Assembly: GCA_040904025.1 (NCBI GenBank)
Contig: JBBDUG010000008.1
Coordinates: 1 to 47,185 of the forward strand
Direction of reading: 5' to 3'
DNA length: 47,185 nt
From: Minisyncoccota bacterium
GTDB lineage: Bacteria > Patescibacteriota > Minisyncoccia > Phycocordibacterales > SW-6-46-9
Part shown: positions 4,042 to 20,201 of the stretch, piece by piece
Layout: each line of letters begins with the position of its first letter
Position numbering within the stretch: the first letter of the stretch is position 1
Notes under the pieces: generated by a model
What the model was told of the DNA's origin: nothing
Databases searched by the model: none
The model's input: the letters and a program-made list of their open reading frames with translations, nothing else
Translations under genes and position numbers: made by a program

Positions 4042-5655
4042 CTATTCTTTGGCAGTTGAAGAGGCCCCATCGTCTAGCGGTCTAGGACATCGCCCTCTCA
4101 CGGCGGAAACACGGGTTCGATTCCCGTTGGGGTCACAATATAGAACTTCTTGTTTTGAAAGATTTTCAGAACTCTGCGCCACAGGCGCACCAGAAAGGAG
4201 ATCAGCGCGTCGCTTCGCGACGAATTGATAGGGAGAGGGAAAGCTAAATGTTACGGATTTGTCATAAATCGTAGGGTTCGTTCCAATCTTTTGTACAAAG
4301 GAACTGATTTGCTCCAAATCACGAGAGTCCTTCAAAATATTGGCTTGTTTTGTATCTAATATAAGATTTCTCACGGGTTCGACCCATTCTTTCTTTCCTT
4401 CTTTACACTCTTTCTTCTTTTCAGAGAGAGAGGATATGGAGCGCATGAGTGTATCTTTCTTTTTGAGATAGATCTGTTTTGGAATATCACCTTCCAGATG
4501 CATGTCGACGAGTTTTTCCATGCGCTCCTCACTCTCCTTAATTTTCGAAGAAAGAGCGTGAAGAGCACTGCGCGACTCTTTACCTTCTTCTTTCTCCCAT
4601 ACATCCACTTTTTTCATCATCCAGTCAGTATATTGATCGTGCAGTGCGATTGTTTGAAGCTTTTCTTGTACTTGTGATACAAGCACACCTTCTCTGAGGT
4701 ATGACTGAGAACAGTCTCCACGCTTTTTAGTACAACGATAGTATCGATACCGGTGTCCCGACTTCCCTGTCGCCCATTGAGCAGTGATCATGCTCTCGCA
4801 TTCTCCGCATCTGAATATGCCGGTGAAGTGGAAGGTGTGTTTGTTTCGCTTTGTTCCCTGAGGACGTGACCTGTCTTCAAGTACATCCTGTACTGCTTCA
4901 AACAATTTGGAAGGAAGAATTGGTTCAAAGCTTCCTTCATACCACTCGTCTTTGTATTTCACAAAGCCGAGGTATGCACGATTTGTGAGCATACGTCTGA
5001 TAGAAGCTTTGCCAAGTGGCGTTCCACCTCTTGTGGTCAAGTTATGTTGCGCCAAAAACTCTGCGAGGGACTCGTATGTATGCGTACCTTTTATATATTC
5101 ACGAAAAGCTTTCACAATAACTTTTGAATACACTGGATGTGGTTCAATATTTCGAGTCTTTTGATTATTCACGTATCCAAGAGGAGCTCTTGTGAGCCAC
5201 TCGCCACGGCGGAGTTTTTGGCGCATGCCGCGCTTTGTATTTTGCGAGAGATTGTCTGAGTAGTATTTCGATTGTCCAAACGCCACTTGGAGCATGAAGA
5301 GCCCCTGTGGAGTTGGTTCAAACCAAAAGGTCGGGAAGCGCAAAGAAGAAATGGTTTCTTGATCTATGAGGTATATAATCTTGCCTCCGTCCACAGAGTT
5401 TCGGGCAAGACGATCGGGATGCCAAGCTAATATACCAATACTCTTCTCCTCCTCGATCTCTTCCATCATCTTTTTGAATACCGGTCTTCCCGGAGTCTTT
5501 GCGCTTTTCGACTCTTGAAATTCTCTTACAATTTCAAGATTTTCTCTCCTCGCAAATTCCCTCAATTCCACAAGCTGAGCTTCTATGCTCATGACCTGCT
5601 TGTTATCATCTTCTGTGGATTTGCGTGCGTAGAGAAAATATTTTGGTTTGGACAT
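4042..5655 (-). CDS. Large serine recombinase/integrase (resolvase + recombinase + Zn-ribbon + coiled coil)
   Basis: YARKS catalytic motif, DRLARN, APLGY, CGEC...YYRC Zn ribbon; likely start MSKPKY at 5655; the C-terminus reads antisense through the tRNA. Confidence 0.93.
   Translation of the reverse strand: MSKPKYFLYARKSTEDDNKQVMSIEAQLVELREFARRENLEIVREFQESKSAKTPGRPVFKKMMEEIEEEKSIGILAWHPDRLARNSVDGGKIIYLIDQETISSLRFPTFWFEPTPQGLFMLQVAFGQSKYYSDNLSQNTKRGMRQKLRRGEWLTRAPLGYVNNQKTRNIEPHPVYSKVIVKAFREYIKGTHTYESLAEFLAQHNLTTRGGTPLGKASIRRMLTNRAYLGFVKYKDEWYEGSFEPILPSKLFEAVQDVLEDRSRPQGTKRNKHTFHFTGIFRCGECESMITAQWATGKSGHRYRYYRCTKKRGDCSQSYLREGVLVSQVQEKLQTIALHDQYTDWMMKKVDVWEKEEGKESRSALHALSSKIKESEERMEKLVDMHLEGDIPKQIYLKKKDTLMRSISSLSEKKKECKEGKKEWVEPVRNLILDTKQANILKDSRDLEQISSFVQKIGTNPTIYDKSVTFSFPSPYQFVAKRRADLLSGAPVAQSSENLSKQEVLYCDPNGNRTRVSAVRGRCPRPLDDGASSTAKE
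4063..4135 (+). tRNA. tRNA-Glu (anticodon CTC); island integration site; CCA not encoded in the current state
   Basis: Acceptor GGCCCCA/TGGGGTC, anticodon arm TCGCC-CTCTCAC-GGCGG, T-arm ACGGG-TTCGATT-CCCGT. Confidence 0.96.
4133..4262. repeat. Inverted repeat IR1-left (attL element arm; 3' part of the recombinase gene)
   Basis: 130 bp reverse complement of 5686-5815 with 1 mismatch. Confidence 0.95.
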
Positions 5656-5685
5656 ATGTATATGTGGGTTAGGTATAAAACAAGA

Positions 5686-5985
5686 ACAAATCCGTAACAT
5701 TTAACTTTCCCTCTCCCTATCAATTCGTCGCGAAGCGACGCGCTGATCTCCTTTCTGGTGCGCCTGTGGCGCAGAGTTCTGAAAATCTTTCAAAACAAGA
5801 AGTTCTATATTGTGAAGAAATTATACACGCTACGCGAACCTTTTTCGAATTTAAGCTTAAAGACTAGTCGCGCGCTGCGCGCCTTCGCGCTCGGCTTATG
5901 CCTCGCCAAAGCACCCCTGAACACTACGCTTCCGCTTTAAGGAAAAGGGCCGACACAAAGAAAAAAAGAGGTGTAGTGTTCGGGG
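5686..5985. repeat. Internal inverted copy of attP (IR1-right 5686-5815 + IR2-left 5812-5985, overlapping at GTGA)
   Basis: Left half matches the reverse complement of 4133-4262, right half matches the reverse complement of 15079-15252; the two halves share only the 4 bp core. Confidence 0.92.
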
Positions 5986-5990
5986 TGCGA

Positions 5991-6995
5991 TTATGATCCC
6001 AACAAAGAAAGAGCGTGCTTAATTTCCTCTTGCAGATCATACGCGTTTCCGTGAGAAAGTAACCCGTGATACGACTGTAGGGTATCTGGGTTTGAATTAT
6101 TCTCAAGAGCTCTAAGTACTCTGCGTTTGGTTGTTGTTCTCAGCACTCTGTGGTCGGGAAAGTGAACCCACCCGAGGAAATCAACTCCTGATGCAAGAGT
6201 CTCTATTGAAACTTTTCGTGGGTGGAGTTTGAGACTGAGCTCGGTTTCAAGAAAGGAAGAGATTTGTGGAATGAGAGATTCGAGCCACCCTCTATCCTCA
6301 GAGAGGAAAACAAAATCGTCTGCATATCTAATGTAGTACTTTGTTTTTAGTTTGTGCTTCACATACTGATCAAAAACATTCATGTATACGTTCACAAGGA
6401 GCTGTGAGGTGAGATTTCCAAGCGGAAGCCCTGTCCCTAGTCTATGTACATGAAAGCTTGAGATTACCTGCCTCAGAAGCCACGTAATATCTTCATCAGG
6501 AATATATTCTTCAAGAATCGATATTAATATCACATGATCAATGGAGGCAAAGAATTTTCTGATATCACATTTGAGTACATGTGCCGTGCGAGTGTGATTC
6601 TTTGATACCTTGTATGAAAACACCTTGAACCTATCCATCGCTCTGTGTGTCCCCTTTCCGATTCTGCATGAATATGAGTCTGCGATGAATGTACGGTCGA
6701 AGAAAGGATAGAGCTTTTGGTGAAGTGCGTGATGCAGGAGTCTGTCTCGCACTTTCGCCTTGTGGATATTGCGCGGCTTTGGATCTGATATATTAAATGC
6801 CTCATATGGAGAGTGAGAATATTCTTTGTCTGAGAGATCAGAATGAAGTTCGAGAATGTTTTCCATGAGGTTGAGTTCAAACTCCTGTACATCACGCCTT
6901 CCCCTCTTTCCTCTCACAAATTCCTCCCATGCAGAGAGAAGATTTTCGAGAGATATGATATCCTCATATGTATGAGTGAAGACAATTTTTCCCAT
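5991..6995 (-). CDS. DGR reverse transcriptase (DGR1)
   Basis: 334 aa; GKGTH, LKCDIRKFF, GLPLGNLTSQ (DGR-type SQ), RYADD, GVDFLG; adjacent Avd and TR/VR pair. Confidence 0.95.
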   Translation of the reverse strand: MGKIVFTHTYEDIISLENLLSAWEEFVRGKRGRRDVQEFELNLMENILELHSDLSDKEYSHSPYEAFNISDPKPRNIHKAKVRDRLLHHALHQKLYPFFDRTFIADSYSCRIGKGTHRAMDRFKVFSYKVSKNHTRTAHVLKCDIRKFFASIDHVILISILEEYIPDEDITWLLRQVISSFHVHRLGTGLPLGNLTSQLLVNVYMNVFDQYVKHKLKTKYYIRYADDFVFLSEDRGWLESLIPQISSFLETELSLKLHPRKVSIETLASGVDFLGWVHFPDHRVLRTTTKRRVLRALENNSNPDTLQSYHGLLSHGNAYDLQEEIKHALSLLGS

Positions 6996-7024
6996 ACATT
7001 AAAGGATACCCCCCCCCACGACTT

Positions 7025-7372
7025 TTGCCAGTCATCCAGAAGACAAAACAGGTATACAAAGTGTGGATACCAATTCATCGAAACATGCCACGGGTTGAAC
7101 GGTTTGGGATCGGTACTAGAATAGATACTAAATTTCTCGATCTCCTAAATCTTTTGCGAAAAGCAGCATATGCAAGAGCAGAGGACAAAGTTGAGCCACT
7201 TAAGAACGCAGTCTCTACGTTAGATTCTCTGAGATTTTTCCTCCAACTCTCATGGGAGGTTTCTTTGATTCCTAATAAGCAATATACACGTCTCGGAAAA
7301 GATGTAGAAGAGATAGGACGTATGGTTGGAGGCTGGAAGAAAGGAATAGAAAAGAAAACTTCCGCCCGTTAG
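7025..7372 (+). CDS. avd: Avd-like four-helix-bundle accessory protein (DGR1), antisense to TR/RT; start uncertain
   Basis: MPRVERFGIG...EEIGRMVGGWKK signature; only a TTG start in frame, and an upstream ATG (6972) is out of frame across a C9 tract. Confidence 0.85.
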   Translation: MPVIQKTKQVYKVWIPIHRNMPRVERFGIGTRIDTKFLDLLNLLRKAAYARAEDKVEPLKNAVSTLDSLRFFLQLSWEVSLIPNKQYTRLGKDVEEIGRMVGGWKKGIEKKTSAR

Positions 7373-7380
7373 AGCGGAAG
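7359..7380. other. Hairpin between avd1 3' end and TR1 3' end
   Basis: CTTCCGC-ccgttaga-GCGGAAG; same position as the 24270-24299 hairpin in DGR3. Confidence 0.6.
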
Positions 7381-7393
7381 AAAGAAGAGAGTT

Positions 7394-7506
7394 GCGAGAA
7401 AAGACCTGGTTGCCATCGTTCCACCTGTTCGGGTTCTCGATCGAGTTAGCCTCGACGTTCCAGCCGCGGTTGTCGGAGTTCCAGTTGGCGTTGACTGCCC
7501 AGAGAA
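7394..7506 (-). repeat. DGR1 template repeat (TR1)
   Basis: 113 bp match to 7840-7952; 16 mismatches, all at TR adenines; 10 AAC codons in the target frame. Confidence 0.97.
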
Positions 7507-7824
7507 ATGTGCACCATCCCATCCGTTCCACCACCCTTTGAATGCTCTCCGGGTTGTATCTAATGTGGGACATCATAAGTCCACCAGCATAGTGCACCGA
7601 TTCAATTCTTTTTTAGGAATATGTACATATACCCTTGTACAAGACGTATCCAGTACAATTCTCACACCATACATATCCGAGGCGTGGTGCAGAAGCCGTA
7701 GCCGCCGCGACAAAACTTCCTCATAGATACTGTATCAAAATTAAAGACCCTCTGCATAATTGCACACGCGTGCAAAGATACAAAGGGTCTAAAGTGAAAA
7801 AGAAAGAGCAGAAGCTCAAGGGGT

Positions 7825-8454
7825 TCAAGCGACAGAATCGCGAGAAAAGACCTGGTAGCCACCGTCCCACCTGCTCGGGTACTCGATCGAGTAAGCCTCG
7901 ACGTACCAGCCGCGGCGGCCGGAGAACCAGAGGGCGCGGACTGCCCAGAGAACTCCCTGGCTGTCGCGAATGTAGAAGATGTTCGCGTAGCCGTTTGTGA
8001 GAAGGTCTCCATCTTCACCCTGTCCTTGCCGCTTCAAGAGCGACCAAAGGTGTGAGAGTGAAGTCTCGACAATTTCCTCACCGCCTAGCTCGTGAATAAT
8101 CGGTATATCGCGCGAGTATTCACGCAAACGGTGGATCTTGAGCTCGGTGTCTTCGACGTTTTCCTCGATCTTGCCGAGGAAGTGTGACTTGAAATTCGAG
8201 CCAAGCCAGATAATTGAGACGCCGTCGGTCTCTTTGCCTTCGCGGAAGTTGTCTTTCGCGATGAATTCCTTGGCGCCGCGAGCCGTAGTCGTTGAGAAGA
8301 ATTCGAGGATACGAGGCTTCTCGGGTTCGACGAGTTGGAACTGGATCTCATCAGAGAGAATGCGACGTGCGTTCTCTTCGCCGATCTTTTTGACGAGCGC
8401 GTTAAGTTGCCCGATCGTCCAGTCCTTCGTGAGCCATGATAATAGCTGTGTCAT
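7825..8454 (-). CDS. DGR1 target protein (209 aa, no signal peptide, C-terminal variable region)
   Basis: C-terminus encoded by VR1. Confidence 0.92.
   Translation of the reverse strand: MTQLLSWLTKDWTIGQLNALVKKIGEENARRILSDEIQFQLVEPEKPRILEFFSTTTARGAKEFIAKDNFREGKETDGVSIIWLGSNFKSHFLGKIEENVEDTELKIHRLREYSRDIPIIHELGGEEIVETSLSHLWSLLKRQGQGEDGDLLTNGYANIFYIRDSQGVLWAVRALWFSGRRGWYVEAYSIEYPSRWDGGYQVFSRDSVA
7840..7952 (-). repeat. DGR1 variable repeat (VR1)
   Basis: At the 3' end of the 7825-8454 gene; all 10 TR AAC codons are changed (R,L,F,R,Y,Y,Y,S,D,Y). Confidence 0.97.
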
Positions 8455-8552
8455 TGTGCTTCCCCCGGGCTTCCTTGCCCGTGTTTGTACTCCTCAAGCG
8501 GAGCGTTCTTGCTAGAGGATCACCCTTTGTGATCATAGCTAATCTATTATTA

Positions 8553-8581
8553 ATTATCTCATACCTTATTACCTCTGTCAA
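8553..8581 (-). promoter_or_regulatory. Sigma70-like promoter for the DGR1 target
   Basis: TTGACA-17 nt-GATAAT with TGn extension on the minus strand, ~100 bp upstream of the ATG. Confidence 0.6.
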
Positions 8582-8635
8582 CTACTAAATCACGGCTAAC
8601 TAAAGCTCTCTTTTAACGCAATGACTTTCTCCCTT

Positions 8636-9601
8636 CTAACTGTTTGATATCGGGGTTGATGTTCCTGATTCCTCTTCAACGCCGGCAGAGTTCGTTTCGT
8701 CTTCTTCTGTGTTCTCCACTTCAGTATCTTCTCCCCCGTTCTCACTCTCCACCTGCTCATTAATCTGCGGTGTCTCACTCCCCTCTGCACCCTCATCAGC
8801 CTGGGATTCTTTTGTATCATCCTCGGAAGAAGGAGTCGGATCTGTCGATGTAGATATATCATCTGCCGGCGCCTCTTCTGGTACAGGATTAGTTGAGGTT
8901 GCCACCTCACTATCTTCTCCCACAACAGATGGTGTAGAGGTTGCTGAGTTTGTGTCTGTTGATTGAGTAGATGTTGACGTAGATGTAGATACCACCTCCG
9001 TTTCTTTTTCTGTTTCCGTTTGCATAATGCTTCCCATTTCAGATCGTGTTTTTCCAACACTCGGGTCTCCTGAATCAGCATATCGGCGCTCGTTTTTTGC
9101 CTGCGGTCTCGTGACACTTGCAAGAGAGCCGAGAAGGCTCCGAAGTGTGGATTTTTCCTGTGTTACGACACCCTCTATACGTGCACGTTCAATAGCCTGC
9201 ACGCGCACAAGATAATCGCGCTCACGCTCCCCTCTCTCACGGAGCTCACTCGTGACATACACCTCGATTTCCTCCTCTGACATACTACCTGCCTCCACTT
9301 TCAATACGTCTGACTTTCGTACCGGTTGCCACATACCTTCAATCACTTCCCATGTGCTATATGTATATTCCACATACACGTACGTATCATCCTCGTATAC
9401 ACTTGTGACTTCGATATTCGCATCGTATGAATCAAAGCTCGCGCCAACGAGACGAGATGTATCAACCGGCACCTGTTGATTCTCACGCACCTGCGTGTAC
9501 GCAAATGCTGAGGATGAGATAACAAAGGCGGTGATGATGAGGGCGGGAAACGCGTTGTGATATTTAATGAAGTCTATAAGATTTTTCATACGTGTGTTCA
9601 T
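8636..9601 (-). CDS. Exported/membrane-anchored protein with acidic S/T/E-rich tail, directly downstream of DGR2 RT
   Basis: 321 aa; N-terminal hydrophobic segment ending AFA; begins 5 bp after the RT2 stop. Confidence 0.8.
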   Translation of the reverse strand: MNTRMKNLIDFIKYHNAFPALIITAFVISSSAFAYTQVRENQQVPVDTSRLVGASFDSYDANIEVTSVYEDDTYVYVEYTYSTWEVIEGMWQPVRKSDVLKVEAGSMSEEEIEVYVTSELRERGERERDYLVRVQAIERARIEGVVTQEKSTLRSLLGSLASVTRPQAKNERRYADSGDPSVGKTRSEMGSIMQTETEKETEVVSTSTSTSTQSTDTNSATSTPSVVGEDSEVATSTNPVPEEAPADDISTSTDPTPSSEDDTKESQADEGAEGSETPQINEQVESENGGEDTEVENTEEDETNSAGVEEESGTSTPISNS

Positions 9602-9606
9602 AGTTA

Positions 9607-10638
9607 TTAATATGTAAAGGGTATGTCGAGCCGGCGCTCAAGATCGCGCCTCAATCCCCACGATGATCCCTTGCGCGCATACTGATACCAAGATTCAATA
9701 GAGCGGTCAAACTGATCTTGCGTCATCGCTTCACGCGCTACCATCTTTCGATACGCGCGTGTCCGACGCACGAAACGTTGTACCGTACTCCTACGCAGAA
9801 GCCGGTGATGTGGAAAGAGGCGAAATCCAAGAAAATCAAGACCGGTGCGGTGCGGGAAGACCGCAACTTTGCGCGGGTTCATCACGAGCTTAAGTTTCTC
9901 TTCCAGAAACTCATTCATTCGGGTTGAGCACTCATGCAGATATTTCTTATCATTCGAGAAGATAACAATGTCATCCATATAGCGTATGTAGTACTCGGCT
10001 TTGAGCTCCCGCTTAATAAACTGATCCAGTTCATTAAGATAAATGTTTGCAAAGAGCTGGCTTGTGAGATTCCCGATCGGAATACCCTTGCCATACGTGA
10101 GGTCATACGAACTCTCAATAACGATTCGACAGAGATCAACGACGCGCCTATCGCGAATCTTGTGTTTTATAAGAGAGAGTAGAATCTCATGATTAATAGT
10201 CGCAAAGTACTTTGAGATGTCGGAGGTCAGCACATACTCTGTTTTGTGCATGAAGTGTTCCGCACGATCGAGGGCGACGTGCGTCCCTTTCCCCTCTCTA
10301 CACGCATAACTGTCATATATGAACATCGGCTCAAAGATGGTTTCTAGTGCGTAGTAGAGAGCATTGTGCACAACACGGTCACGGAAGCATGCCGCTTTTA
10401 TAAGACGCTTCTTTGAATCGCGAACAATAAAGGTACGATACTGCCCGTGTGTATATGTACCGTCATGGAGCTCGTCACGAATATCAACGAGATTGTCCTC
10501 GAGATTATACCCAAAGTGAAGCACCTGCATACGATACCGCTTTCCTCGACGCGCCCTCTCCCACGCCGCATAGAGTGCGGGTATAGAAGCAATAGTATGG
10601 AATATGTTGTTGTATGTTTTCATACGTAATATATACAA
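9607..10638 (-). CDS. DGR reverse transcriptase (DGR2)
   Basis: GKGTH, DISKYF, GIPIGNLTSQ, RYMDD, GLDFLG; start may be MKTYNN at 10623. Confidence 0.95.
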   Translation of the reverse strand: MYILRMKTYNNIFHTIASIPALYAAWERARRGKRYRMQVLHFGYNLEDNLVDIRDELHDGTYTHGQYRTFIVRDSKKRLIKAACFRDRVVHNALYYALETIFEPMFIYDSYACREGKGTHVALDRAEHFMHKTEYVLTSDISKYFATINHEILLSLIKHKIRDRRVVDLCRIVIESSYDLTYGKGIPIGNLTSQLFANIYLNELDQFIKRELKAEYYIRYMDDIVIFSNDKKYLHECSTRMNEFLEEKLKLVMNPRKVAVFPHRTGLDFLGFRLFPHHRLLRRSTVQRFVRRTRAYRKMVAREAMTQDQFDRSIESWYQYARKGSSWGLRRDLERRLDIPFTY

Positions 10639-10820
10639 AGGCCTAGTTAACCACAGCGGGGAGCTTCGGGTGAGGCACCCCTACCACAACCCGATGCGGG
10701 TACAGGCCGCATATTTTCCCGGAAACGTGCGTCCACGAGAAGGACTACACCAGTAATGAACAGGCACGGACAGTATCTCGATGGATTCAAGAGACTGTTC
10801 AGGCCCAAGGCTTTGTAGAG
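10639..10820 (-). ncRNA. Putative DGR2 spacer RNA 3' of TR2
   Basis: GC-rich non-coding stretch between TR and RT with short stems (e.g. ACAGT.TCTC...GAGACTGT), at the position of the priming spacer in canonical DGRs. Confidence 0.5.
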
Positions 10821-10937
10821 TACCAGGCGCATCGGAAGCCAATGTTGGAATTCGTGTTCGAGGGCGAGTTGTTCAGGTTCAGCGTGAAGACACCCGCATC
10901 GTCGCCATTATCCCAGTTCCCGCCACGTTGGAAGGCA
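10821..10937 (-). repeat. DGR2 template repeat (TR2)
   Basis: 117 bp match to 11392-11508; 10 mismatches at TR adenines plus 1 G/C difference. Confidence 0.97.
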
Positions 10938-10975
10938 ACCGTTGCTCGAGGTGCAGCCCTTCATATAGACACACC

Positions 10976-11314
10976 CTAGGAATTATTTTTTATCCATCCT
11001 CCGACCATCTTGCCGATCTCCGAGAGCCGCTCCGCCGCAAACGCATACTGCCGTGAGCCGATGAAATTGAGATCGCGCGCAACGCGCATGAGTGTTTTGA
11101 GCATATCCACGAGCAGACTCAGCTCATAGAGGTGCGGAAGTTTGCGACGCGACGCGTTAGCGCGCATGATGCATTTCAGGATTCTGAGGATGGTACTTTC
11201 AATGTGCTGTCCCAAGACGAATCTCTGCGACTTAGGAAACTTATTTACCGTCGGATAGATCCAGAGAAGCAATTCGTACGTCTTCTCGTATATCGCAAGG
11301 TCTTTATATGTCAT
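10976..11314 (-). CDS. avd: Avd accessory protein (DGR2)
   Basis: 112 aa; KFPKSQRFVLG...EIGKMVGGWIK; canonical target-avd-TR-RT order. Confidence 0.93.
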   Translation of the reverse strand: MTYKDLAIYEKTYELLLWIYPTVNKFPKSQRFVLGQHIESTILRILKCIMRANASRRKLPHLYELSLLVDMLKTLMRVARDLNFIGSRQYAFAAERLSEIGKMVGGWIKNNS

Positions 11315-11390
11315 AGAACTAAAGTTGAAAGAACTAAGCTATCCTACCCCCACCCCACGCCCGGCCAATCCAAATTCCAAATTTCTGTCA

Positions 11391-14300
11391 TTACCAGGCG
11401 CATCGGAAGCCAAAGTTGGAATTCGTGTACGAGGGCGAGCTGCTCAGGTACAGCGTGAAGACACCCGCATCGTCGGCATCATCCCAGCCCCCGCCACGCC
11501 GGAAGGCATGATAATCACTGTTATACCCGACACCGTCATACGCGTGGCCCGGATTGATATATATTTTTCCGATGCCATACGTAGAGTCCCAACTAATATC
11601 CCAGGGGCGCAGATCGTGACCTTGATAGTCGGTAACGGCCGTATACTCGAACCAGTTGGGGGTAGTGACATTTCCCGCCTTCACCATCTCCATAGTAATA
11701 CCATCATTATCATTACCATTGCCCGTAGCTGCGGTATCATCTTCAATGATATAGGCGTCGACCCACTCCCACACATTTCCGGAGAAATCCCAGATCGTTT
11801 CTGCATTTGAGAGTGCGAGTTCCGCTTTCGTATTGCGACCCGTTCCCGATTCAGGATTCGAGCCGTCATATGACACACTATCGGTTATGCCGATGTTCCC
11901 GCGCAATAACCCGCCCCCTGATGCCACGGTCGAGCCGATAACGCCATCGGCCCAGTTCCCCGTCTGCTTTGAGACGTTGTCGGCAATAGTCATCCACTCA
12001 GCGTTTGAGATGAGATGATACTCATCACCGAGCGCCTCACATTGCGCGCGAGCATCAGTTTGCGTAATACTCACCCATGGGTTTGAATTCGCCTGAGATG
12101 TCGCGACACCACTGACATTCTTTGCCTCATATTTCATTACACAAAATCCGGGGAGTGTGCCGTGCTTTGCCGAGCCCGGAACCCATATGTACCCCGTCGG
12201 ACAGTGTCGCTCGAATTCCTCCGCCACCACCTTATTCTCCACAACTATGTTTCCACCACCCGACACGGAGACTGACGGACATGCACCACCGGCACATACA
12301 TTAAAGTCTTCGTCGAGAAACGAGACGGTACCGCCGGAGGCCGAGAGTATGACATTTCCTGTTGCATCAACTTGGAATTCACTCCGACGCGACGCATCAT
12401 ATGCAATACGAAGCTGTGCATTTGCGACCGTATCGAAGACCTCAAATACGCGGGTAGGCGCGGAAGTACCCACACCCACTCGACCGGAGGACCAATCGAC
12501 CACGAGATTTCCCGAGCCAACATCAAATCCTCCGGCAAATGTACTCGTGGCCGAGGCATTTGAGGCCACGAAATTGTTTGCGGTGAGCTGTCCTGTGGTT
12601 GTATCGTCTCCGGAGTTTATAAGAAACGCATCATCGACATTGAGTGTATTTGAATTCCATGAGATATTTGTACCGGCTGTAATACGAGTAGAAGGGGTGG
12701 TATAGAAATTATCCCAGTTAGTGACAGAGGTGGAGAGCGGAATGGTATACCCACTCGAGAGCGCAAGTGCGTCTCCGGAAAGCTCGAGCCCTGTTGCTGA
12801 TACAGATAGATTTGTGTAGGTAGATATATCAATAGCGGTACCGTTCCATACACCCGTGGATATAGTTCCGAGTGTAGTGATAGAATCATCTCCGGTATAC
12901 GTACCCGCCGATACTGCATCAAGTATTGCGCTATACGCCTGTACATCAGATCCGATCGCAAGACCAAGATTCGTGCGTGCACCACTTGCCGTTACCGCCC
13001 CCGTTCCTCCGTATGCCACTGCAAGTGTATTTGCATTCCACGTTCCCGATGTCAATGTACCGACAGTAGCCAAATTGGGGGTGGAAAAGAGCGTTGCAAT
13101 GGTTGAGGTTGCATTGATACGTGCGTCTGCTCGTGCGTTGGTGAAGTAGAGGTTTGAGCCCTCTGCGAGGTCTGTTGTGGTGTTGTCAGAAAGATCATCA
13201 TCCGAGAGGGCTCCGTCATTGTTGGTAAAGACGTTAACCACTCCGGCAAGAAAACTCTCGAGTCCACTTTCAGTATTAGACTTGAGAATCGTTGATGATG
13301 CATTGATGTATCCTGCGGTATCTGTGTCAGTATAATGATCAAGATCAGAGATCTGTGACTCTGTGACGGAGAGGTTAGCAAGGGTTGTGATATTTGGGAG
13401 TGTTGTGGTTGCAGAGAGTCTCTCGTCGAAGCGGGTATTGGTCCAATAGAGATTTGATCCCTCAGATAGTGCATCAGTCGTTGTTGCACTAAAGAATGTA
13501 TGGAAAGGAGTCCCGAAGTTTGTGAGATTGCGTGCATCAAGGTAGTACACCCCTTCTTGTCCATCAAGTGTTCCCGTCCAATCTCCTGTTTTTGTTATGT
13601 ATCCGTCACCAATAGCTGTTCCCTGCCAGGTACCGCTTGTGACAGTCCCTACCTCACTCAAACCGGAAACCGATATATCGCCCGCAAAAGTTGATGTTGC
13701 CGTGGTTGATGTTGCCTGAATATAGGGAACTGTGATCGCGCCTGAAAGTGTTTGAGAACCGGAGACGGTAAAGTTGCCTGATATCGTCGCATCACCGGAA
13801 ACAGAAAGGGAGGTGATTGTTGTTCCTTCTGCATTGAGAGTTCCACCAACATCAAGTGTGTACGCAGGAGTGGTTGTGAGAACGCCAACTCTATTGTTAT
13901 CTGCATCAATATAGAGCGTATCTGTATCAAAGGCAGAATTTCCCGATACCGAAAGTTCTTGAGTGCTCACCGATTGCGAGATAGACGAGTGTATATCACG
14001 ACGAGCATTTTCATCCTGACGCCGCGCGATGAAGGTAAGGTCTGACAACTTATTAGAGAGCGAACTGAGAATGTTCGCGATTGTCTCATCTCGCTGCACT
14101 GTTTCTTGTGCCGCGAGACGCAAACGAGATGAAAGCTCCGCTTCGCTCACACCGGGATATACGAGACGTTCTTCGTATACCACTCGTTCAATTATCTGAG
14201 GTGAGGAAGATTCAAGAGAAAGTGATGTTTGTGGAGTAGTTGTTCCTGCTATGCTCCCCCCCCCCTCAGGGTTTAGAGCATTGTGTCGGTCAAAGACAAC

Positions 14301-14792
14301 GGTACGTGGTGGAGCAAGAAGAGAAGCAAGAGCAAATGCAGCTTGAGACAGGTTGGTACGGATAGATTCTGTAAGTGAATTCACCCGCGAATGTGAAATA
14401 TCCATGTGATCCACGACATACGTAACCGTACTCCTCATTGAGGAGACAGTTTGAGAAATTGTGTTGCCGGAAAATGATGAAGCAACAAACGGTGTTGCGA
14501 TAAGGATAAAAACAAGACTTGCCACAACCACTGGTCGTACCATAGGGATTAAAGAAAAAGAAGAATGTGGTTCATTCGCTTCCTCTTCATCAAGATAAAA
14601 ACTCTCTTCCAAATCCTGCCTGTATTCTTCAAGAAGTACTTTATCAATATGCCATTTCCCTTCTCCTTTGTAGACAGACTCAATCACTCGTGCACGACAG
14701 AGGCGCATGATGTGATCTTCTGACCACCCAGTGAGGTGTGCCGCCGCTTCAATGGAAATATACTCCTGATTCTCTGAATCGTGAAAAGCCAT
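11391..14792 (-). CDS. DGR2 target: large surface protein (N-terminal HTH, TM helix, fibre-like stalk, C-terminal FGE-sulfatase/C-type-lectin-fold domain)
   Basis: 1133 aa; YISIEAAAHLTGWSEDHIMRLCR (excisionase-like HTH), VVVASLVFILIATPFVA TM, repeated EGSNLY.TN.R and GT.TSGTW motifs, FCVMKYEA, DFSGNVWEW, RGG.W...GFRC. Confidence 0.92.
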   Translation of the reverse strand: MAFHDSENQEYISIEAAAHLTGWSEDHIMRLCRARVIESVYKGEGKWHIDKVLLEEYRQDLEESFYLDEEEANEPHSSFSLIPMVRPVVVASLVFILIATPFVASSFSGNTISQTVSSMRSTVTYVVDHMDISHSRVNSLTESIRTNLSQAAFALASLLAPPRTVVFDRHNALNPEGGGSIAGTTTPQTSLSLESSSPQIIERVVYEERLVYPGVSEAELSSRLRLAAQETVQRDETIANILSSLSNKLSDLTFIARRQDENARRDIHSSISQSVSTQELSVSGNSAFDTDTLYIDADNNRVGVLTTTPAYTLDVGGTLNAEGTTITSLSVSGDATISGNFTVSGSQTLSGAITVPYIQATSTTATSTFAGDISVSGLSEVGTVTSGTWQGTAIGDGYITKTGDWTGTLDGQEGVYYLDARNLTNFGTPFHTFFSATTTDALSEGSNLYWTNTRFDERLSATTTLPNITTLANLSVTESQISDLDHYTDTDTAGYINASSTILKSNTESGLESFLAGVVNVFTNNDGALSDDDLSDNTTTDLAEGSNLYFTNARADARINATSTIATLFSTPNLATVGTLTSGTWNANTLAVAYGGTGAVTASGARTNLGLAIGSDVQAYSAILDAVSAGTYTGDDSITTLGTISTGVWNGTAIDISTYTNLSVSATGLELSGDALALSSGYTIPLSTSVTNWDNFYTTPSTRITAGTNISWNSNTLNVDDAFLINSGDDTTTGQLTANNFVASNASATSTFAGGFDVGSGNLVVDWSSGRVGVGTSAPTRVFEVFDTVANAQLRIAYDASRRSEFQVDATGNVILSASGGTVSFLDEDFNVCAGGACPSVSVSGGGNIVVENKVVAEEFERHCPTGYIWVPGSAKHGTLPGFCVMKYEAKNVSGVATSQANSNPWVSITQTDARAQCEALGDEYHLISNAEWMTIADNVSKQTGNWADGVIGSTVASGGGLLRGNIGITDSVSYDGSNPESGTGRNTKAELALSNAETIWDFSGNVWEWVDAYIIEDDTAATGNGNDNDGITMEMVKAGNVTTPNWFEYTAVTDYQGHDLRPWDISWDSTYGIGKIYINPGHAYDGVGYNSDYHAFRRGGGWDDADDAGVFTLYLSSSPSYTNSNFGFRCAW
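11392..11508 (-). repeat. DGR2 variable repeat (VR2)
   Basis: Encodes AFRRGGGWDDADDAGVFTLYLSSSPSYTNSNFGFRCAW at the target C-terminus. Confidence 0.97.
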
Positions 14793-15078
14793 AATAGATT
14801 ATGTTTATTATAGCGTATACCTCTGTACTTTTCCGTCAGTTATCAACACTTTTTCGTTTACACCTATAATACAAGTTCACCCAATCACCTCTTAGCTGGA
14901 AAGTATAGACTACACTCGTGAGTACGTCGAAGAGCGAAACCTTCAAAGCATAAGGACATAAGCACTACCGATAGGTAGTGCGGGAGGTCCGCAATGCTTT
15001 GGGGTAAGTGGAGGATAGAATAACCAAAACGCTCGGGTATGAAGCGCCTTCGCTTCCTCCCTTGTGGAGGAAGAGAGC

Positions 15079-15252
15079 CCCCAAACACTACACCTCTTTT
15101 TTTCTTTGTGTCGGCCCTTTTCCTTAAAGCGGAAGCGTAGTGTTCAGGGGTGCTTTGGCGAGGCATAAGCCGAGCGCGAAGGCGCGCAGCGCGCGACTAG
15201 TCTTTAAGCTTAAATTCGAAAAAGGTTCGCGTAGCGTGTATAATTTCTTCAC
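15079..15252. repeat. Inverted repeat IR2-right (attR element arm)
   Basis: 174 bp reverse complement of 5812-5985 with 1 mismatch. Confidence 0.95.
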
Positions 15253-15297
15253 CAAAGAGAGAGCTAGTTCGAGCACTCTAAAAGGGTCGAATTAGCT

Positions 15298-15332
15298 AAC
15301 AAAAGCAAGTCGTAATCCGACTTGCTTTTGTT
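15298..15332. terminator. Terminator-like hairpin just outside attR
   Basis: AACAAAAGCAAGTCG-taatc-CGACTTGCTTTTGTT; would lie just downstream of the tRNA in the excised state. Confidence 0.65.
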
Positions 15333-15368
15333 GTAGTTTAGTACAACTGTTTGTGATATAATCTTTTT

Positions 15369-15575
15369 ATGAAAGATGATGCTAAAAAGTTGGGTGAAAA
15401 TCTTAAAAAAATCAGAGCTAAGAAAAATATAACTCAAACAGAGCTTGCACTAATTCTCAATGTCGATAAATCTTTTGTTAGTAACATTGAAAATGGGAAA
15501 AACAACCCAACTCTTTCAACTATTACCAATCTAGCAAAAGCTCTCAAAGTTCCGGTCGATGAGCTTTTCAAATAA
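15369..15575 (+). CDS. XRE-family HTH transcriptional regulator (possible R-M controller protein)
   Basis: 68 aa; LKKIRAKKNITQTELA...SNIENGKNNPTL. Confidence 0.9.
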   Translation: MKDDAKKLGENLKKIRAKKNITQTELALILNVDKSFVSNIENGKNNPTLSTITNLAKALKVPVDELFK

Positions 15576-18258
15576 ATTTATGATCAATCTAGTAACCTTA
15601 CAAGAAAATTTAGAAAACCTTAGTCAAAACTTTTCAAAGCAAATGTTTATTTTTGATTTGCTTTCTGTATACGAATTGCCTAAAAGTACAATTTCATTAC
15701 TCTCTAAAAATCCCACAAAACTATCTGGTAAAGAAGATCAGATCATTTTAAAAAATAAATTACTTTTTCATACAACTACACTCGAAGAGGATGAACACGT
15801 TGCTATCGATGCATTGCAGAAAGATAAAACTTCGTACAAGTTTAATCCTCGATTTATTATCGTTACAGATTTTGTGACGTTCTTGGCTGTAGATACAAAA
15901 ACAAAAGAAACTCTCGATATTCAAATTGGAGATCTCGGTAAACACTATGCGTTCTTCTTGCCATGGTGCGGAATGGAAAAGTCACAGCATGTAAATGAAA
16001 ATCCTGCTGATATCCGTGCCGCCTATAAGATGGATAAGCTATATCAGGCAATTATTACTGATGACCCTGAATACTACAAAAACAATAGCCACGATCTCAA
16101 CATATTTCTATCAAGACTTTTGTTCTGTTTCTTTGCTGAAGATACTGGTATTTTCCCTAAGACAGGGATGTTTACTAATTCTGTAAACTCCCATACTCAT
16201 GAAAACGGAGACGAGATGGATACTTACTTTTCGACACTTTTTGATGTTTTGGATACCAAAGATTCTGATCGATCGAAATTTGCTTCGCATTTCTTGGAAT
16301 TTCCATATGTTAACGGCGGTCTTTTTGAAACTAATATCAAATTGCCAACATTTACAGCTACTTCCCGAAAATTGATTATTGAATGTGGAAAGCTGAACTG
16401 GGACTCAATCAATCCAGATATTTTTGGATCCATGATTCAAGCAGTTGTTCTTCCAGGACAGCGTGAAAACCTTGGAATGCACTACACCTCCGTTCCGAAC
16501 ATAATGAAAGTCATTGAGCCTCTTTTCCTGAATGATCTATATGAGGAATTAGAGAATTCAAAGACTGATATTAAGAAACTCACCAAGCTTCGTGAACGAG
16601 TAGCGAAGATTAAGATATTTGACCCAGCGTGTGGATCAGGTAATTTCCTTATTATTTCATATAAGGAGCTATCAAAACTGGAGTCAAAAATAATCAGTTA
16701 CGCAAAAGATCTTGGGCATCAAATGATGTCGTATTCCGGCGTGTCACTAAATTCATTTTATGGAATAGAGATAGATGATTTTGCACACGAAATAGCTCGA
16801 CTTTCATTATGGCTTGCACAGCACCAAATGAACCAGTATTTCGATGGTATGTTTGGAATCATGAAAGCAACGCTTCCTCTTAAAGAAAGCGGAAAGATTG
16901 CTTGTGGTAATGCTGTTCGGGTTGATTGGAACGAAGTTTGTCCACGTAAGGATCAGGTTGTTGGTGAACATGAAATATATGTCGTGGGTAATCCGCCATA
17001 TCTAGGTTCTAGAAATCAAGAAGATGAACAAAAAGAAGATCTAAAAAGTCTGTTTATAAACGACTATAAAAGTCTAGATTACATATCTGCTTGGTTTTAT
17101 AAAGGAGCAAAATATATTTCAGGTCATGAAAAAATTAAGTTAGCTTTTGTATCAACAAATTCAATTTCGCAGGGGGAACAAGTAGCATTACTTTGGCCTC
17201 TTATTTTTCAGGAGAATGTGGAGATATGTTTTGCTCACCAGTCTTTTAAATGGAAAAATCTTGCGAAAGGAAATGCGGGTGTAACTTGTGTAATTATTGG
17301 TCTTGCTAACCAAGGTGGTCAGATAAAAAAGCTGTACTCATCAGATCAATATAGAAATGTTAAGAATATCAATCCATATCTTACAGAGGGAAATTCTAGT
17401 TTTATTACTAGACGCTCAAGTCCTTTATCAAAAGACCTCCCCCAAATGACATATGGAAATTTATTAAACGATGGAGGTAATTTTGTTTTAACAAAGGAAG
17501 AAAAAGATCAGCTTATCGAAAAATATCCAGAGTCAAATGTTTTAGTTAAAAGCTATATTGGATCCCAAGAATTTATTCGTGGACAACAAAGATGGTGCCT
17601 CTATATAAAGGATGACCAGATTACTTTGGCTAAATCTATTCCAGAGATTGTTAGTCGTTTAAATAAAATTAGAATACTGAGGAGTGCAAGTACAGAAAAA
17701 AGTACTCGTGCAATGGCAGATTTCCCTCACAAGTATTACTTCTTGGCACATAAGGAAACAAGTTCAATCATCATACCCAGAACATCTTCCGAGAATAGAG
17801 ATTACATACCAATGGGCTTCTTGGATAATAAAACAATTATCTCCGACGCGGCTCAAGTAATCTATAATGCAGAGCCATACATTTTCGCAATTCTAAATTC
17901 TCGTATGCACATGACTTGGGTGCGTGCTGTTGGAGGTAGACTTAAGACGGACTTACGATATTCATCAGCGCTTTGCTACAACACTTTTCCTTTTCCAGAA
18001 ATTTCACCAAAGCAAAAGGAGTCACTTACTAGCCACGTCTACAATATTCTAGAGGAACGTGAGAAGTGTCCAGAGAAGACAATGGCAGATCTGTATGATC
18101 CAGATAAGATGCCAGACGGATTACGGGAAGCACACAAATATTTAGATCTCGCTATTGATCAAATATATCGAAGCAAACCGTTTGACAGTGACGAAGATCG
18201 ACTAGCTCACTTATTCAAACTTTACGAGGAGATGATTACTAGAAAAACTAACCAATAA
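15559..18258 (+). CDS. MmeI/YeeA-like N6-adenine DNA methyltransferase with target-recognition domain
   Basis: RLLFCFFAEDTGIF, FPYVNGGLF, GMHYTS, DPACGSGNFL, GNPPY, YNTFPFP; start possibly the ATG at 15580. Confidence 0.9.
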   Translation: MSFSNKFMINLVTLQENLENLSQNFSKQMFIFDLLSVYELPKSTISLLSKNPTKLSGKEDQIILKNKLLFHTTTLEEDEHVAIDALQKDKTSYKFNPRFIIVTDFVTFLAVDTKTKETLDIQIGDLGKHYAFFLPWCGMEKSQHVNENPADIRAAYKMDKLYQAIITDDPEYYKNNSHDLNIFLSRLLFCFFAEDTGIFPKTGMFTNSVNSHTHENGDEMDTYFSTLFDVLDTKDSDRSKFASHFLEFPYVNGGLFETNIKLPTFTATSRKLIIECGKLNWDSINPDIFGSMIQAVVLPGQRENLGMHYTSVPNIMKVIEPLFLNDLYEELENSKTDIKKLTKLRERVAKIKIFDPACGSGNFLIISYKELSKLESKIISYAKDLGHQMMSYSGVSLNSFYGIEIDDFAHEIARLSLWLAQHQMNQYFDGMFGIMKATLPLKESGKIACGNAVRVDWNEVCPRKDQVVGEHEIYVVGNPPYLGSRNQEDEQKEDLKSLFINDYKSLDYISAWFYKGAKYISGHEKIKLAFVSTNSISQGEQVALLWPLIFQENVEICFAHQSFKWKNLAKGNAGVTCVIIGLANQGGQIKKLYSSDQYRNVKNINPYLTEGNSSFITRRSSPLSKDLPQMTYGNLLNDGGNFVLTKEEKDQLIEKYPESNVLVKSYIGSQEFIRGQQRWCLYIKDDQITLAKSIPEIVSRLNKIRILRSASTEKSTRAMADFPHKYYFLAHKETSSIIIPRTSSENRDYIPMGFLDNKTIISDAAQVIYNAEPYIFAILNSRMHMTWVRAVGGRLKTDLRYSSALCYNTFPFPEISPKQKESLTSHVYNILEEREKCPEKTMADLYDPDKMPDGLREAHKYLDLAIDQIYRSKPFDSDEDRLAHLFKLYEEMITRKTNQ

Positions 18259-18262
18259 TATT

Positions 18263-20200
18263 ATGAAAACTATTCAAGTAGCAGAAGCAACATACGCACA
18301 AACAGGACAAAGCACTAAGCTTAATGAGCTTGGTATGCGTGAGATGCAGGCAAAAGCATTTGAAAAAAGAAATGCACAATACCTGCTTTTGAAAGCACCT
18401 CCCGCATCTGGTAAATCACGAGCTTTGATGTTCCTGGCGTTAGATAAATTAACCAATCAGGGAATTAAAAAAGTTATTGTTGCTGTTCCTGAAAAATCTA
18501 TCGGTGGGTCCTTCAGTGAGACTAATTTAACTAGTGGTGGGTTCTTCGCTGATTGGAAACCAAACGATCACTACAATCTTTGTACCCCGGGACTGGATAA
18601 TGCTAAAGGTAAAGTTGAGGCGTTCAAGAATTTTATGGATAACGACGAGAAGATTCTTATCTGTACACACGCAACACTTCGCTTTGCGTGTGAGCAAATT
18701 GAAGATACAAAGTTTAATGATGCACTCATTGCAATTGACGAATTTCACCATGTTTCAGCAGATAAAGATACTAGTCGCTTAGGTAATGTGTTGCATGGAA
18801 TAATGACCAGCTCTAATGCACACATAGTCGCTATGACAGGGTCATATTTTCGTGGCGACGGTGTAGCTGTTTTATTGCCACAGGATGAGGCTAAGTTTGT
18901 AAAAGTAACATACAACTACTATCAGCAGTTGAACGGCTATACATATTTAAAGACCTTGGGTATTGGATACCACTTTTATCAAGGTAAATACACATCAGCT
19001 ATTGCTGAAGTTTTGGATACGAACAAGAAAACGATTTTACATATTCCGAACGTAAACTCTGGAGAATCTACAAAAGATAAGCTCAACGAAGTTGACTTAA
19101 TTCTGGATATTATCGGTGAGGTGGATCATCAAGATCATGAGACTGGCGTGATCTATGTGAAGCGTGATGGTGACGGAAAAATGCTTAAAGTCGCAAACCT
19201 GGTTGATGATTCAGTCGATCGAGACAAGATATCAAACTATCTTCGCACTATGAAAAACGAAGATGATATGGATATCATTATTGCTTTAGGTATGGCAAAA
19301 GAAGGTTTTGACTGGCCGTATTGTGAACATGCTTTGACTGTGGGTTATCGAAGCTCACTAACAGAGATCATTCAGATTATTGGACGTTGCACTCGAGATA
19401 GTGCAAACAAGACGCATGCGCAATTTACAAACCTAATAGCGCAACCAGATGCAAAAGACGGCGAAGTTAAAGTGTCGGTCAATAATATGTTAAAGGCAAT
19501 AACATGCTCTCTGCTCATGGAACAAGTAATGGCTCCTCATTATAATTTCAAACCACGATTCCCAAACGATGATACAAGCTTCACGCCAGGTGAAATTAAA
19601 GTAAATGGATTCAAAGCGCCTAGTACTGATCGTGTACAAGAAATTATTGAATCAGATATTAATGATCTTAAGGCCACTATTCTTCAAGACGATCAGATGG
19701 TTAAGGCATTGCCTGGAAATGTTGATCCAGAGGTAATAAACAAAGTGATGATACCGAAGATTATTCAAATGAAATACCCTGATCTTACTGATCTTGAAGT
19801 TGAAGAAGTTCGTCAGCATGTCGTTGTTGATTCTGTGATCAAGAATGGAGAAATCAAAGAAGTTGGAGATAAGAAATTTGTTCGTATGGCGGGACAGTTT
19901 GTAAATATAGATGATCTCAATATTGACCTTATCGACAGCATCAATCCGTTCCAAGAAGCTTTTGAAATTCTCTCAAAATCAGTAACCTCAAGTATTCTTA
20001 AAGTTATTCAAGATACTATTGATTCATCTCGAATTGAAATGACTCCCGAAGAGGTTAAAATTCTATGGCCTAAGGCAAAAGAGTTTACAATTCAAACAGG
20101 TCGAAAGCCTGAGATTTCTTCCTCGGACCCTCTCGAAAAACGACTTGCCGAGGCAGTGTTGTATTTGAAAAAACTTAAGGCTGAACAAGTGCAAAATTAA
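18263..20200 (+). CDS. YeeB-like superfamily 2 helicase/ATPase
   Basis: APPASGKS Walker A, DEFHH, MTGS, KEGFD, QIIGR. Confidence 0.88.
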   Translation: MKTIQVAEATYAQTGQSTKLNELGMREMQAKAFEKRNAQYLLLKAPPASGKSRALMFLALDKLTNQGIKKVIVAVPEKSIGGSFSETNLTSGGFFADWKPNDHYNLCTPGLDNAKGKVEAFKNFMDNDEKILICTHATLRFACEQIEDTKFNDALIAIDEFHHVSADKDTSRLGNVLHGIMTSSNAHIVAMTGSYFRGDGVAVLLPQDEAKFVKVTYNYYQQLNGYTYLKTLGIGYHFYQGKYTSAIAEVLDTNKKTILHIPNVNSGESTKDKLNEVDLILDIIGEVDHQDHETGVIYVKRDGDGKMLKVANLVDDSVDRDKISNYLRTMKNEDDMDIIIALGMAKEGFDWPYCEHALTVGYRSSLTEIIQIIGRCTRDSANKTHAQFTNLIAQPDAKDGEVKVSVNNMLKAITCSLLMEQVMAPHYNFKPRFPNDDTSFTPGEIKVNGFKAPSTDRVQEIIESDINDLKATILQDDQMVKALPGNVDPEVINKVMIPKIIQMKYPDLTDLEVEEVRQHVVVDSVIKNGEIKEVGDKKFVRMAGQFVNIDDLNIDLIDSINPFQEAFEILSKSVTSSILKVIQDTIDSSRIEMTPEEVKILWPKAKEFTIQTGRKPEISSSDPLEKRLAEAVLYLKKLKAEQVQN

Positions 20201-20201
20201 T

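Follow-up and report, generated by a model that had tools for sequence, protein, structure and literature searches.

Islands of Patescibacteria with a large serine recombinase and an inverted internal copy of their own attachment site

In the yeast 2-micron plasmid, the tyrosine recombinase Flp acts on identical FRT sites that lie within 599-bp inverted repeats, and recombination between them serves copy-number amplification. Hin and Gin are small serine invertases that use 26-bp sites and a Fis enhancer, and both orientations of their segments are common in populations. In Tn4451 (TnpX), IS911 and IS30, a promoter is formed at the junction of the circular intermediate and is present only in the circle. 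In mycobacteriophage BPs and its relatives, the element attachment site attP reportedly lies inside the 3′ end of a gene, and integration is said to change the C terminus of the encoded protein (integration-dependent immunity); the altered gene is reportedly that of the repressor, with a tyrosine recombinase as integrase and no internal copy of attP. Islands in tRNA and transfer-messenger RNA (tmRNA) genes usually encode tyrosine integrases that restore the split gene, according to the Islander study (PMC4383910). For large serine integrases, another study gives an offset of 4–5 bp between attP and the chromosomal site attB (PMC11722253). Here we analyse a 47,185-nt stretch of a contig of a Minisyncoccota bacterium (JBBDUG010000008.1, positions 1–47,185, assembly GCA_040904025.1; "the window"), from a genome of 682 kb in 59 contigs that is 94% complete. 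Its stretch 4133–15252 is almost certainly an 11.1-kb integrative island of a large, apparently undescribed Patescibacteria family, in which a large serine recombinase targets the 3′ ends of tRNA and tmRNA genes.

The element is framed by two pairs of inverted repeats (Table 1), as the initial annotation had proposed and as both a repeat search and exact-block comparison confirmed. IR1 pairs 4133–4262 with the reverse complement of 5686–5815 (130 nt, 99% identity), and the lone mismatch of the 130-nt arm is an S-to-N change. IR2 pairs 5804–5985 with 15079–15260 (182 nt, 98%), with exact blocks at 5812–5985 and 15079–15252. Repeats of such length and identity are far beyond a chance origin, and the genome contains these three copies of the site only. 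In a three-way alignment of the left end (attL), the reverse-complemented internal copy and the right end (attR), only TCAC is common to all three at the crossover, which bears out the earlier assignment of the three sites as attL, an inverted attP and attR. We refer to the attP half carried by IR1 as X and to that carried by IR2 as Y. Because the arms meet at the 4-bp core, 5686–5985 is the junction that recombination between attL and attR would make, present as an inverted internal copy. The integrated order is attL, int, inverted attP, cargo and attR. Excision would inevitably yield a circle with two attP sites in inverted orientation. Joining the tRNA to the right flank restores ...GGGGTCA-CCA, and attB is thus reconstructable. 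Further to the right, a hairpin with a T-rich run at about 15301–15335 resembles, as read from the sequence, the original tRNA terminator, although the terminator scan did not list it.

The recombinase has a catalytic Resolvase domain (PF00239, E 1.2e-24, residues 22–168), in which the catalytic serine S28 is invariant in 28 aligned sequences, followed toward the C terminus by Recombinase (PF07508, E 3.3e-13) and Zn_ribbon_recom (PF13408, E 5e-10) domains. That the crossover lies inside the recombinase coding sequence, as noted previously, is correct: the minus-strand frame running from 5655 to 4042 passes through the core into the tRNA antisense, of which 34 codons are read. The attP core thus sits within the 3′ end of a coding frame that has two alternative C-termini, and the internal copy holds the other one in frame, as KSVTFNFPSPYQ...EVLYC-EEIIHATRTFFEFKLKD-stop. 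We read the frame across the core into Y in 32 loci; the native tail carries the motif [ED]-I-L-T-F-A-R-T-x-F-E, with 12–20 residues and then a stop, and the host-side tails of the same loci are variable (1–136 residues). Because the crossover is inside the recombinase frame, integration swaps the native tail for a tRNA-antisense read-through family-wide. The tail change that had been described for the window therefore recurs, with a conserved native tail, in the 32 loci read. Native and tRNA-derived tails both contain x-R-T, because Y mimics the tRNA. Two partial database proteins, P0126 and P0128, end in the native tail; they are leads only, as the path through the repeat may have been mis-threaded in them.

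The recombinase has more than 7000 homologs, and relatives occur in at least 546 genome-contig and at least 570 metagenome-contig matches. There are none among viral contigs, and a phage origin was rejected on this ground. We surveyed 160 loci, namely the best 80 of the genome-contig and the best 80 of the metagenome-contig relatives, ranked by similarity to a single query. Across the family, IR1 was defined as an inverted repeat pairing the 3′ end of the gene with the stretch immediately upstream of its start; repeats could be evaluated in 124 loci and tRNA flanks in 143. The check proposed earlier, a search of related genomes for the same recombinase with a duplicated attP, gave a clear result: IR1 (110–148 nt) is present in 117 of the 124 loci and is retained across recombinases down to 56% identity. 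The recombinase 3′ end reads into tRNA antisense in 126 of the 143 loci, and the target tRNAs are Glu, Ser, Arg, Gly, Ala, Leu, Lys, Ile, Val, Pro, Tyr and Met. Positions 1822–2228 of locus L152 adjoin a tmRNA (Rfam, 105 bits), and the flanks of L066 (11520–11760), L097 and L115 have no tRNA or Rfam match. IR2 (80–309 nt) begins within a few bases of IR1 and has its partner 1.2–7.0 kb away. Where more than 2 kb of upstream sequence is present (68 loci), IR2 abuts IR1 in 32; where more than 9 kb is present (36 loci), it does so in 24. Its arms are 100% identical in 16 of the 32 loci that have it. The layout also occurs in records titled "chromosome" (L010, L066). The X arm of every member begins at conserved D-K-S codons, and these shared boundaries point to a single origin followed by gene conversion. 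Since the repeats break assemblies, the recombinase start lies less than 520 nt from a contig end in 70 of the 160 loci. The initial annotation had presented the layout as that of a carrier of diversity-generating retroelements (DGRs); it is instead a property of the recombinase family, for which DGRs are one cargo among many.

The half-sites show a common anatomy. The Y half-site is conserved across elements with different target tRNAs and carries a GGTTCG motif like that of the tRNA T-arm. Using a strict pattern on 109 loci, we found both motifs in 86, and in 85 of these the Y GTTCG is 6 nt further from the core than the tRNA GTTCRA, a comparison that applies to the tRNA-side halves only. 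This shift matches in kind the 4–5 bp offset by which attP and attB of large serine integrases are defined (PMC11722253). The X half-site is within the 3′ end of the recombinase gene, and its conserved GAAACTTC-like box accounts for the conserved E-V-x-x-C of the protein. Cores are 4–6 nt long (TCAC at Glu; CCGC at Ser; GCAC at Arg, Gly and Leu), and the B′ half is not conserved. The Y motif is present in 100 of 121 loci, in most of them 180–200 nt upstream of the recombinase start. The X arms (window 4133–4262 and 60 relatives) also contain two GC-rich stem-loops, often with UUCG- or GNRA-like loops, that are kept despite sequence change and overlap the conserved FVAxRR and AxxAR protein stretches. 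RNAalifold gave 3 pairs only as a consensus fold. A two-hairpin structure drawn by hand from the same sequences has 75% of cells paired and a covariation of 0.236, compared with 0.131 when shuffled (0/500) and 0.056–0.129 when slid; in helix 2, 85.5% of cells are paired and five of six pairs have changed on both sides.

Recombinase genes at least 90% identical in DNA make up 183 locus pairs, of which 141 have both host flanks; 135 of these 141 have no detectable flank similarity. The genes of L037 and L107, for example, are 100% identical, with flanks at 79%. Among 400 sampled genomes of the phylum, 11 contain a close homolog, and they belong to scattered families. These comparisons show that the elements move horizontally between distant hosts. 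The two X arms of one element have a median identity of 100% (65 of 123 at 100%, 96 of 123 at 98% or above, 18 below 95%), and the median between related elements, whose genes are 90–99.5% identical, is 94.7%; the repeat arms thus evolve in concert. The internal Y|X sites of L117 (about 4850–5031) and L036 (about 215–398) are of a common tRNA-Ser type, near-identical to those of L018 and L022. In both, the internal site does not match the 3′ end of the gene itself, and L117 is inserted at a tRNA-Ile; these mismatched sites suggest modular exchange between elements. L044 (7558–17880) contains a tandem array: the recombinase of one element runs on into the Y arm of its neighbour, and another repeat-flanked unit, of 1.4 kb, begins at the contig end. 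L070 has three recombinase copies in one locus. From these arrays, attR may be a secondary target.

Does the internal copy let the enclosed segments invert? Identical arms make the assembly graph symmetric, and orientation in any short-read contig therefore depends on read pairs. Of 138 classifiable loci, a strict pattern assigns Y-type sequence to the flank of the internal core in 114, and about 10 more are variants recognised by eye; the flank is tRNA-type in L137 and partly so in L007. In L137, host genes are followed by tRNA-Ser(TGA), the core CCGC, X and then a recombinase reading away from the tRNA, and the contig stops where the second arm would start. In L007, a foreign X and part of a tRNA lie upstream, and a different X and tRNA-Glu downstream; this locus may be a recombinant or a chimera. 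A further pattern match, in L155, is by eye not tRNA-like. For the cargo, polarity can be followed by a small HTH_3 gene found in 22 of 32 elements. It lies at the near arm, reading away from the recombinase, in 20 of them, at the far arm in L107 and in the middle in one. The window cargo has no HTH_3 match at E ≤ 1, so its orientation is judged by gene strand alone. All its genes are on the recombinase strand, a minority arrangement, as about 14 of 19 elements in a first set have mostly the opposite strand (by eye). Free flipping would show both states, and the assemblies, whose contigs cannot phase isomers, do not. The proposal that IR1 inversion is a working switch has against it the 126 of 143 recombinases that read into the tRNA, with the opposite state limited to L137 (clean) and L007 (hybrid). 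The corresponding proposal for IR2 has on its side only the far-arm marker of L107 (1 of 22) and the minority strand of the window cargo. The analogy drawn with the 2-micron plasmid stands for the geometry of two inverted sites and fails for replication, whose families are absent from 20 scanned cargo open reading frames.

We tentatively favour a reading, to which we give rather less than an even chance, in which the internal copy is mainly a cis-acting control region and rare inversions are by-products. The copy would be a standing replica of the circle junction ahead of the recombinase gene. From it, the predicted promoter-like element would fire across the core towards the recombinase, and the copy would supply a 130-nt leader and a putative binding site for the recombinase itself. 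Its hairpins could insulate the recombinase gene from the divergent cargo operon. Through homologous recombination, the long perfect repeats make both the recombinase segment and the cargo able to invert; we take such inversions to be rare and mostly selected against, a by-product and not what the layout is for. A cis role is favoured by the fixed spacing of the Y motif, the promoter-like pair, the divergent HTH_3 gene and the persistence of unmatched sites. Indeed, a −35/−10-like pair that would start transcription at the core is found at the same position in 21 of 33 elements, and the internal Y|X site persists in four of seven loci (L036, L117, L143 and L038) where it is unmatched to the gene's own 3′ end. 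Several observations weigh against this reading. The promoter score reaches 9/12 or more in just 5 of 33 elements, compared with 48 of 1650 shuffles; the promoter is a consensus match, and the conservation of the promoter-like pair could reflect recombinase binding alone. A control region needs neither 300–400 bp nor near-perfect identity to both element ends. IR1 is missing from 7 of 124 loci with intact frames and hence is dispensable at least for a while, and IR2 was not found in 12 of the 36 loci with more than 9 kb upstream. An empty attB or free circle of the window element was not seen in the contigs or in relatives. Furthermore, with L137 co-directional with its tRNA and L107 carrying a flipped cargo, inversion or use of a second site may belong to the life cycle.

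In place of a control region, the copy could be one partner of a programmed inversion, which we consider unlikely. Recombination between attL and the internal inverted attP, by the recombinase or by RecA, would flip the gene: in one state it would be convergent with the tRNA, tail-swapped and silent, and in the other it would carry the native tail, lie downstream of the tRNA promoter and be active. No separate directionality factor would be needed for the active form to trigger excision, and IR2 would flip the cargo likewise. Perfect inverted repeats do flank both segments family-wide, concerted evolution implies ongoing arm–arm recombination, and the native tail is conserved and stored in frame. 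In agreement with such a switch, the L137 recombinase reads away from tRNA-Ser, the partial proteins P0126 and P0128 end in the native tail, L107 has its polarity marker at the far arm, and the smallest scanned cargos are without an obvious directionality factor. Inversion by the recombinase itself is conceivable, as attL keeps the only conserved attB half, and attP–attP tetramers have been reported for another serine integrase (PMC11722253). However, orientation is near-invariant, with 126 of 143 genes directed into the tRNA and L137 as the sole clean flip, and L137, P0126 and P0128 are possibly mis-threaded paths through a graph that is symmetric between identical arms. Recombination of attP with attL or attR is not known for canonical large serine integrases, four loci keep an internal site unmatched to attL, and the tRNA-derived tail, through the x-R-T that Y shares with the tRNA it mimics, partly resembles the native one. 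An extended form of this idea is equally improbable in our view: the twin attP would be a self-rewiring, factor-free directionality switch, each recombination swapping the tail and the orientation of the gene to the tRNA promoter. In that case, the circular, flipped and stable integrated forms would each yield a different enzyme or enzyme amount, with the internal attP as the partner for toggling (attP × attL) between locked and excision-competent states. A further, more improbable possibility is that the copy is a second working attachment site, such that a circle with two identical inverted attP sites would integrate via either, or retarget when the copies differ, and the integrated layout would be what such a circle leaves behind. 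This geometry follows directly from the sequence, both conserved half-sites are kept internally in nearly all loci (the 114 of 138 of Y type and the 10 or so by eye), L117 has a Ser-type internal site while at a tRNA-Ile, and L137 has the layout expected for integration via the second site. Two indistinguishable sites, though, predict about equal orientations, and the assemblies give about 126 to 1–2; 2-micron-type amplification lacks a basis when no replication or partition family occurs in the 20 scanned cargo open reading frames; and no circle was detected, its junction looking the same as the internal copy.

Two explanations would leave the copy without a role. It could be a frozen accident, an ancient inverted duplication of attP whose identity is kept by gene conversion; we regard this as improbable, at the level of the second attachment site. 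The identical repeat boundaries of all members, at the D-K-S codons, do imply a single origin, gene conversion alone explains the identity of the arms, and seven of 124 loci have lost IR1 with their frames intact. Yet 117 of 124 loci keep the copy, with recombinase identity as low as 56% and despite the cost of invertible repeats; its spacing to the start codon is fixed, and the Y|X site is still found in loci where it has ceased to be a repeat of attL. Alternatively, it could be an assembly chimera of the integrated and circular forms, the outcome that the initial annotation had named as fatal to its interpretation. The window does come from a short-read style assembly with a 55-nt contig-end overlap, in which repeats of 130–174 nt needed read pairs. 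However, the junctions 5685|5686 and 5985|5986, which are absent from the simple integrated form and from the circle, are bridged by independent contigs of four public runs from a single study (X1–X4, available as k=31 contigs only, from which orientation phasing is impossible): the former by X4 record 26, and the latter by X3 record 19, X1 record 4 and X2 record 14. Together with the presence of the layout in 117 of 124 loci from many unrelated assemblies, including "chromosome" records, this makes the probability of a chimera negligible. The probability that remains belongs to explanations outside those considered here. In the same contigs of X1–X4, which break at repeat edges, the joint from tRNA to right flank (4136 to 15253) that would mark an empty site was not present, and a circle junction is not distinguishable from the internal copy. 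The lower depth of the element in X1 (35–39, against about 50 for the flank) was set aside, as each contig has a single depth value. The 40 nearest genomes are all of other genera and have only thrS and the tRNA in common with the window. An X3 contig joins a different tRNA-like 3′ end (26 loose letters, too short to interpret) to 15249 onward; this joint may be an unoccupied site in a related strain.

The cargo of the window (5986–15078) consists of two DGRs, recognised by their reverse transcriptases, by adenine-biased pairs of template and variable repeats and by the position of the variable repeat at the 3′ end of the target gene. In variable repeat 1, an X2 contig differs from the window at 11444, 11452, 11476 and 11482, and these differences between samples are consistent with ongoing diversification by the DGR. 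The N-terminus of the 1133-aa target (14792) has a weak HTH_17 match (E 0.0024, below the Pfam cut-off), which is unusual for a DGR target, and its start adjoins the far arm, mirroring the HTH gene of relatives at the near arm. The cargo of relatives includes a beta-helix/PKD protein, an aromatic amino-acid lyase, a GTP cyclohydrolase II–methyltransferase fusion, an AAA_15 ATPase and DUF proteins. Twenty cargo open reading frames of 17 relatives belong to HTH_3, surface, metabolic or defence families or have no match; none of these 20 belongs to a replication or partition family, and no candidate directionality factor was recognised in the smallest cargos scanned.

Table 1. Features of the integrated element and its flanks (window coordinates)
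Feature	Position	Strand	Evidence or remark
Large serine recombinase, integrated form	4042..5655	-	start MSKPK...; Pfam, translation, alignment
tRNA-Glu(CTC)	4063..4136	+	ARAGORN; Rfam RF00005, 60.1 bits; B half-site of attB/attL in its 3′ part
Crossover core TCAC at attL	4133..4136		three-way alignment
X arm (IR1 left)	4133..4262		attP X half-site and last ~43 recombinase codons ahead of core
X′ arm (IR1 right)	5686..5815		inner end 30 nt upstream of recombinase ATG
Stored recombinase C-terminus with native tail EEIIHATRTFFEFKLKD and stop	5688..5867	+	in frame; without own start codon
Core of internal inverted attP	5812..5815		GTGA on + strand; three-way alignment
Y′ arm (IR2 near)	5812..5985		tRNA-mimicking Y half-site, native tail codons and stop, GC-rich hairpins
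Promoter-like site TCGAAA-17-TATAAT	5820..5848	-	10/12, consensus match only; points across core towards recombinase
Reverse transcriptase, DGR 2	5991..6995	-	Pfam RVT_1, E 3.3e-22
Template repeat (TR) 2	7388..7506	-	17/18 mismatches to variable repeat (VR) 2 at TR adenines
209-aa target gene, VR2 (7834-7952) at 3′ end	7825..8454	-	without Pfam match
Reverse transcriptase, DGR 1	9607..10638	-	Pfam RVT_1, E 5.5e-26
Template repeat 1	10821..10937	-	10/11 mismatches to VR1 at TR adenines
1133-aa target gene with VR1 (11392-11508)	11391..14792	-	FGE-sulfatase/C-type-lectin-like C-terminus, PF03781 E 2.9e-5
Y arm (IR2 far), attR	15079..15252		ends in core TCAC (15249-15252)
Twin promoter-like site	15216-15244	+	points out of element
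B′ flank	15253..15335	+	begins CAAAG, completing CCA; sequence reading

To the right of attR, 15559–22611 has a low GC content (0.35–0.39) and may be another island: it includes a MmeI-type restriction-modification gene with five MmeI Pfam domains (15559–18258) and a second, distant serine recombinase homolog with 35% identity (21565–22611, minus strand). A LOOT RNA (Rfam RF03000) lies at 25883–26004 on the plus strand (78.6 bits), and another is found in the unrelated L066 at 20925–21044 (73.3 bits). Positions 1–55 of the window are identical to 25979–26033 of another contig of the same genome (C31 of G000), a k-mer overlap that links both contigs and hints at an assembly with k=55.

The genomes of Patescibacteria are tiny, and few vehicles of gene transfer are recognised in them; this family is a compact one, with a 1.5-kb recombinase gene and 1–9 kb of cargo. 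It delivers surface proteins, DGRs, defence and metabolic genes into tRNA genes, and is seen in hundreds of contigs. Its conserved inverted attP raises the question of what regulates a large serine integrase for which no directionality factor is known, and the fixed 6-nt offset illustrates the attP/attB rule in a natural system. The tRNA-mimicking attP suggests recombinases for which a short core next to a universal motif defines the target. If the twin attP did act as a self-rewiring switch, hundreds of Patescibacteria islands would share a new control of a large serine integrase, with a target changeable via a 4–6 nt core beside the universal tRNA T-arm motif. For assembly, the repeats explain a recurrent break and are a warning that short-read assemblies do not securely orient the segments between them.

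We found no description of the twin-attP layout in the open literature, subscription papers and supplements being outside the search; the supplements of a large recombinase catalogue preprint (10.1101/2021.11.05.467528) may list members of this family. The element resembles Tn4451, IS911 and IS30 in having a promoter-like site across joined ends towards the recombinase gene, but here the site, predicted from a consensus match, would belong to a permanent junction replica upstream of the gene. As in Hin, a serine recombinase gene lies between inverted recombination sites, whereas the window family has a large serine recombinase, arms of 115–309 nt and a near-invariant orientation. With the 2-micron plasmid it would share a circle of two unique segments and two long inverted repeats with a central site, the recombinase being in one segment; in contrast to the plasmid, the family is integrated, uses a serine recombinase and has no replication function in the scanned cargo open reading frames. 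The change of a C terminus is common to BPs and the window family, in which the altered gene is that of the recombinase itself and any effect of the tail is hypothetical. Like Islander islands, these elements insert site-specifically at tRNA and tmRNA 3′ ends and carry variable cargo, but their serine recombinase crosses over at the discriminator/CCA position, so that only the 3′ trailer is replaced. The likeness is closest in kind to the large serine integrases (phiC31, Bxb1, Listeria A118/LI and SPbeta SprA), with which the recombinase shares the Resolvase, Recombinase and zinc-ribbon domains, a short core with half-sites, and an outer motif further out in attP than in attB, by 6 nt here and by 4–5 bp in the published work (PMC11722253). 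Unlike those described, the window family targets tRNA and tmRNA 3′ ends with an attP half that mimics the tRNA, crosses over within the recombinase's own frame and keeps an inverted internal attP, and it has no recognised directionality factor in the scanned cargos, no phage genes and no relatives in viral contigs. What is new relative to described serine-recombinase elements is therefore the combination of a tRNA-mimicking attP at tRNA 3′ ends, a crossover in the element's own recombinase gene and a retained inverted attP.

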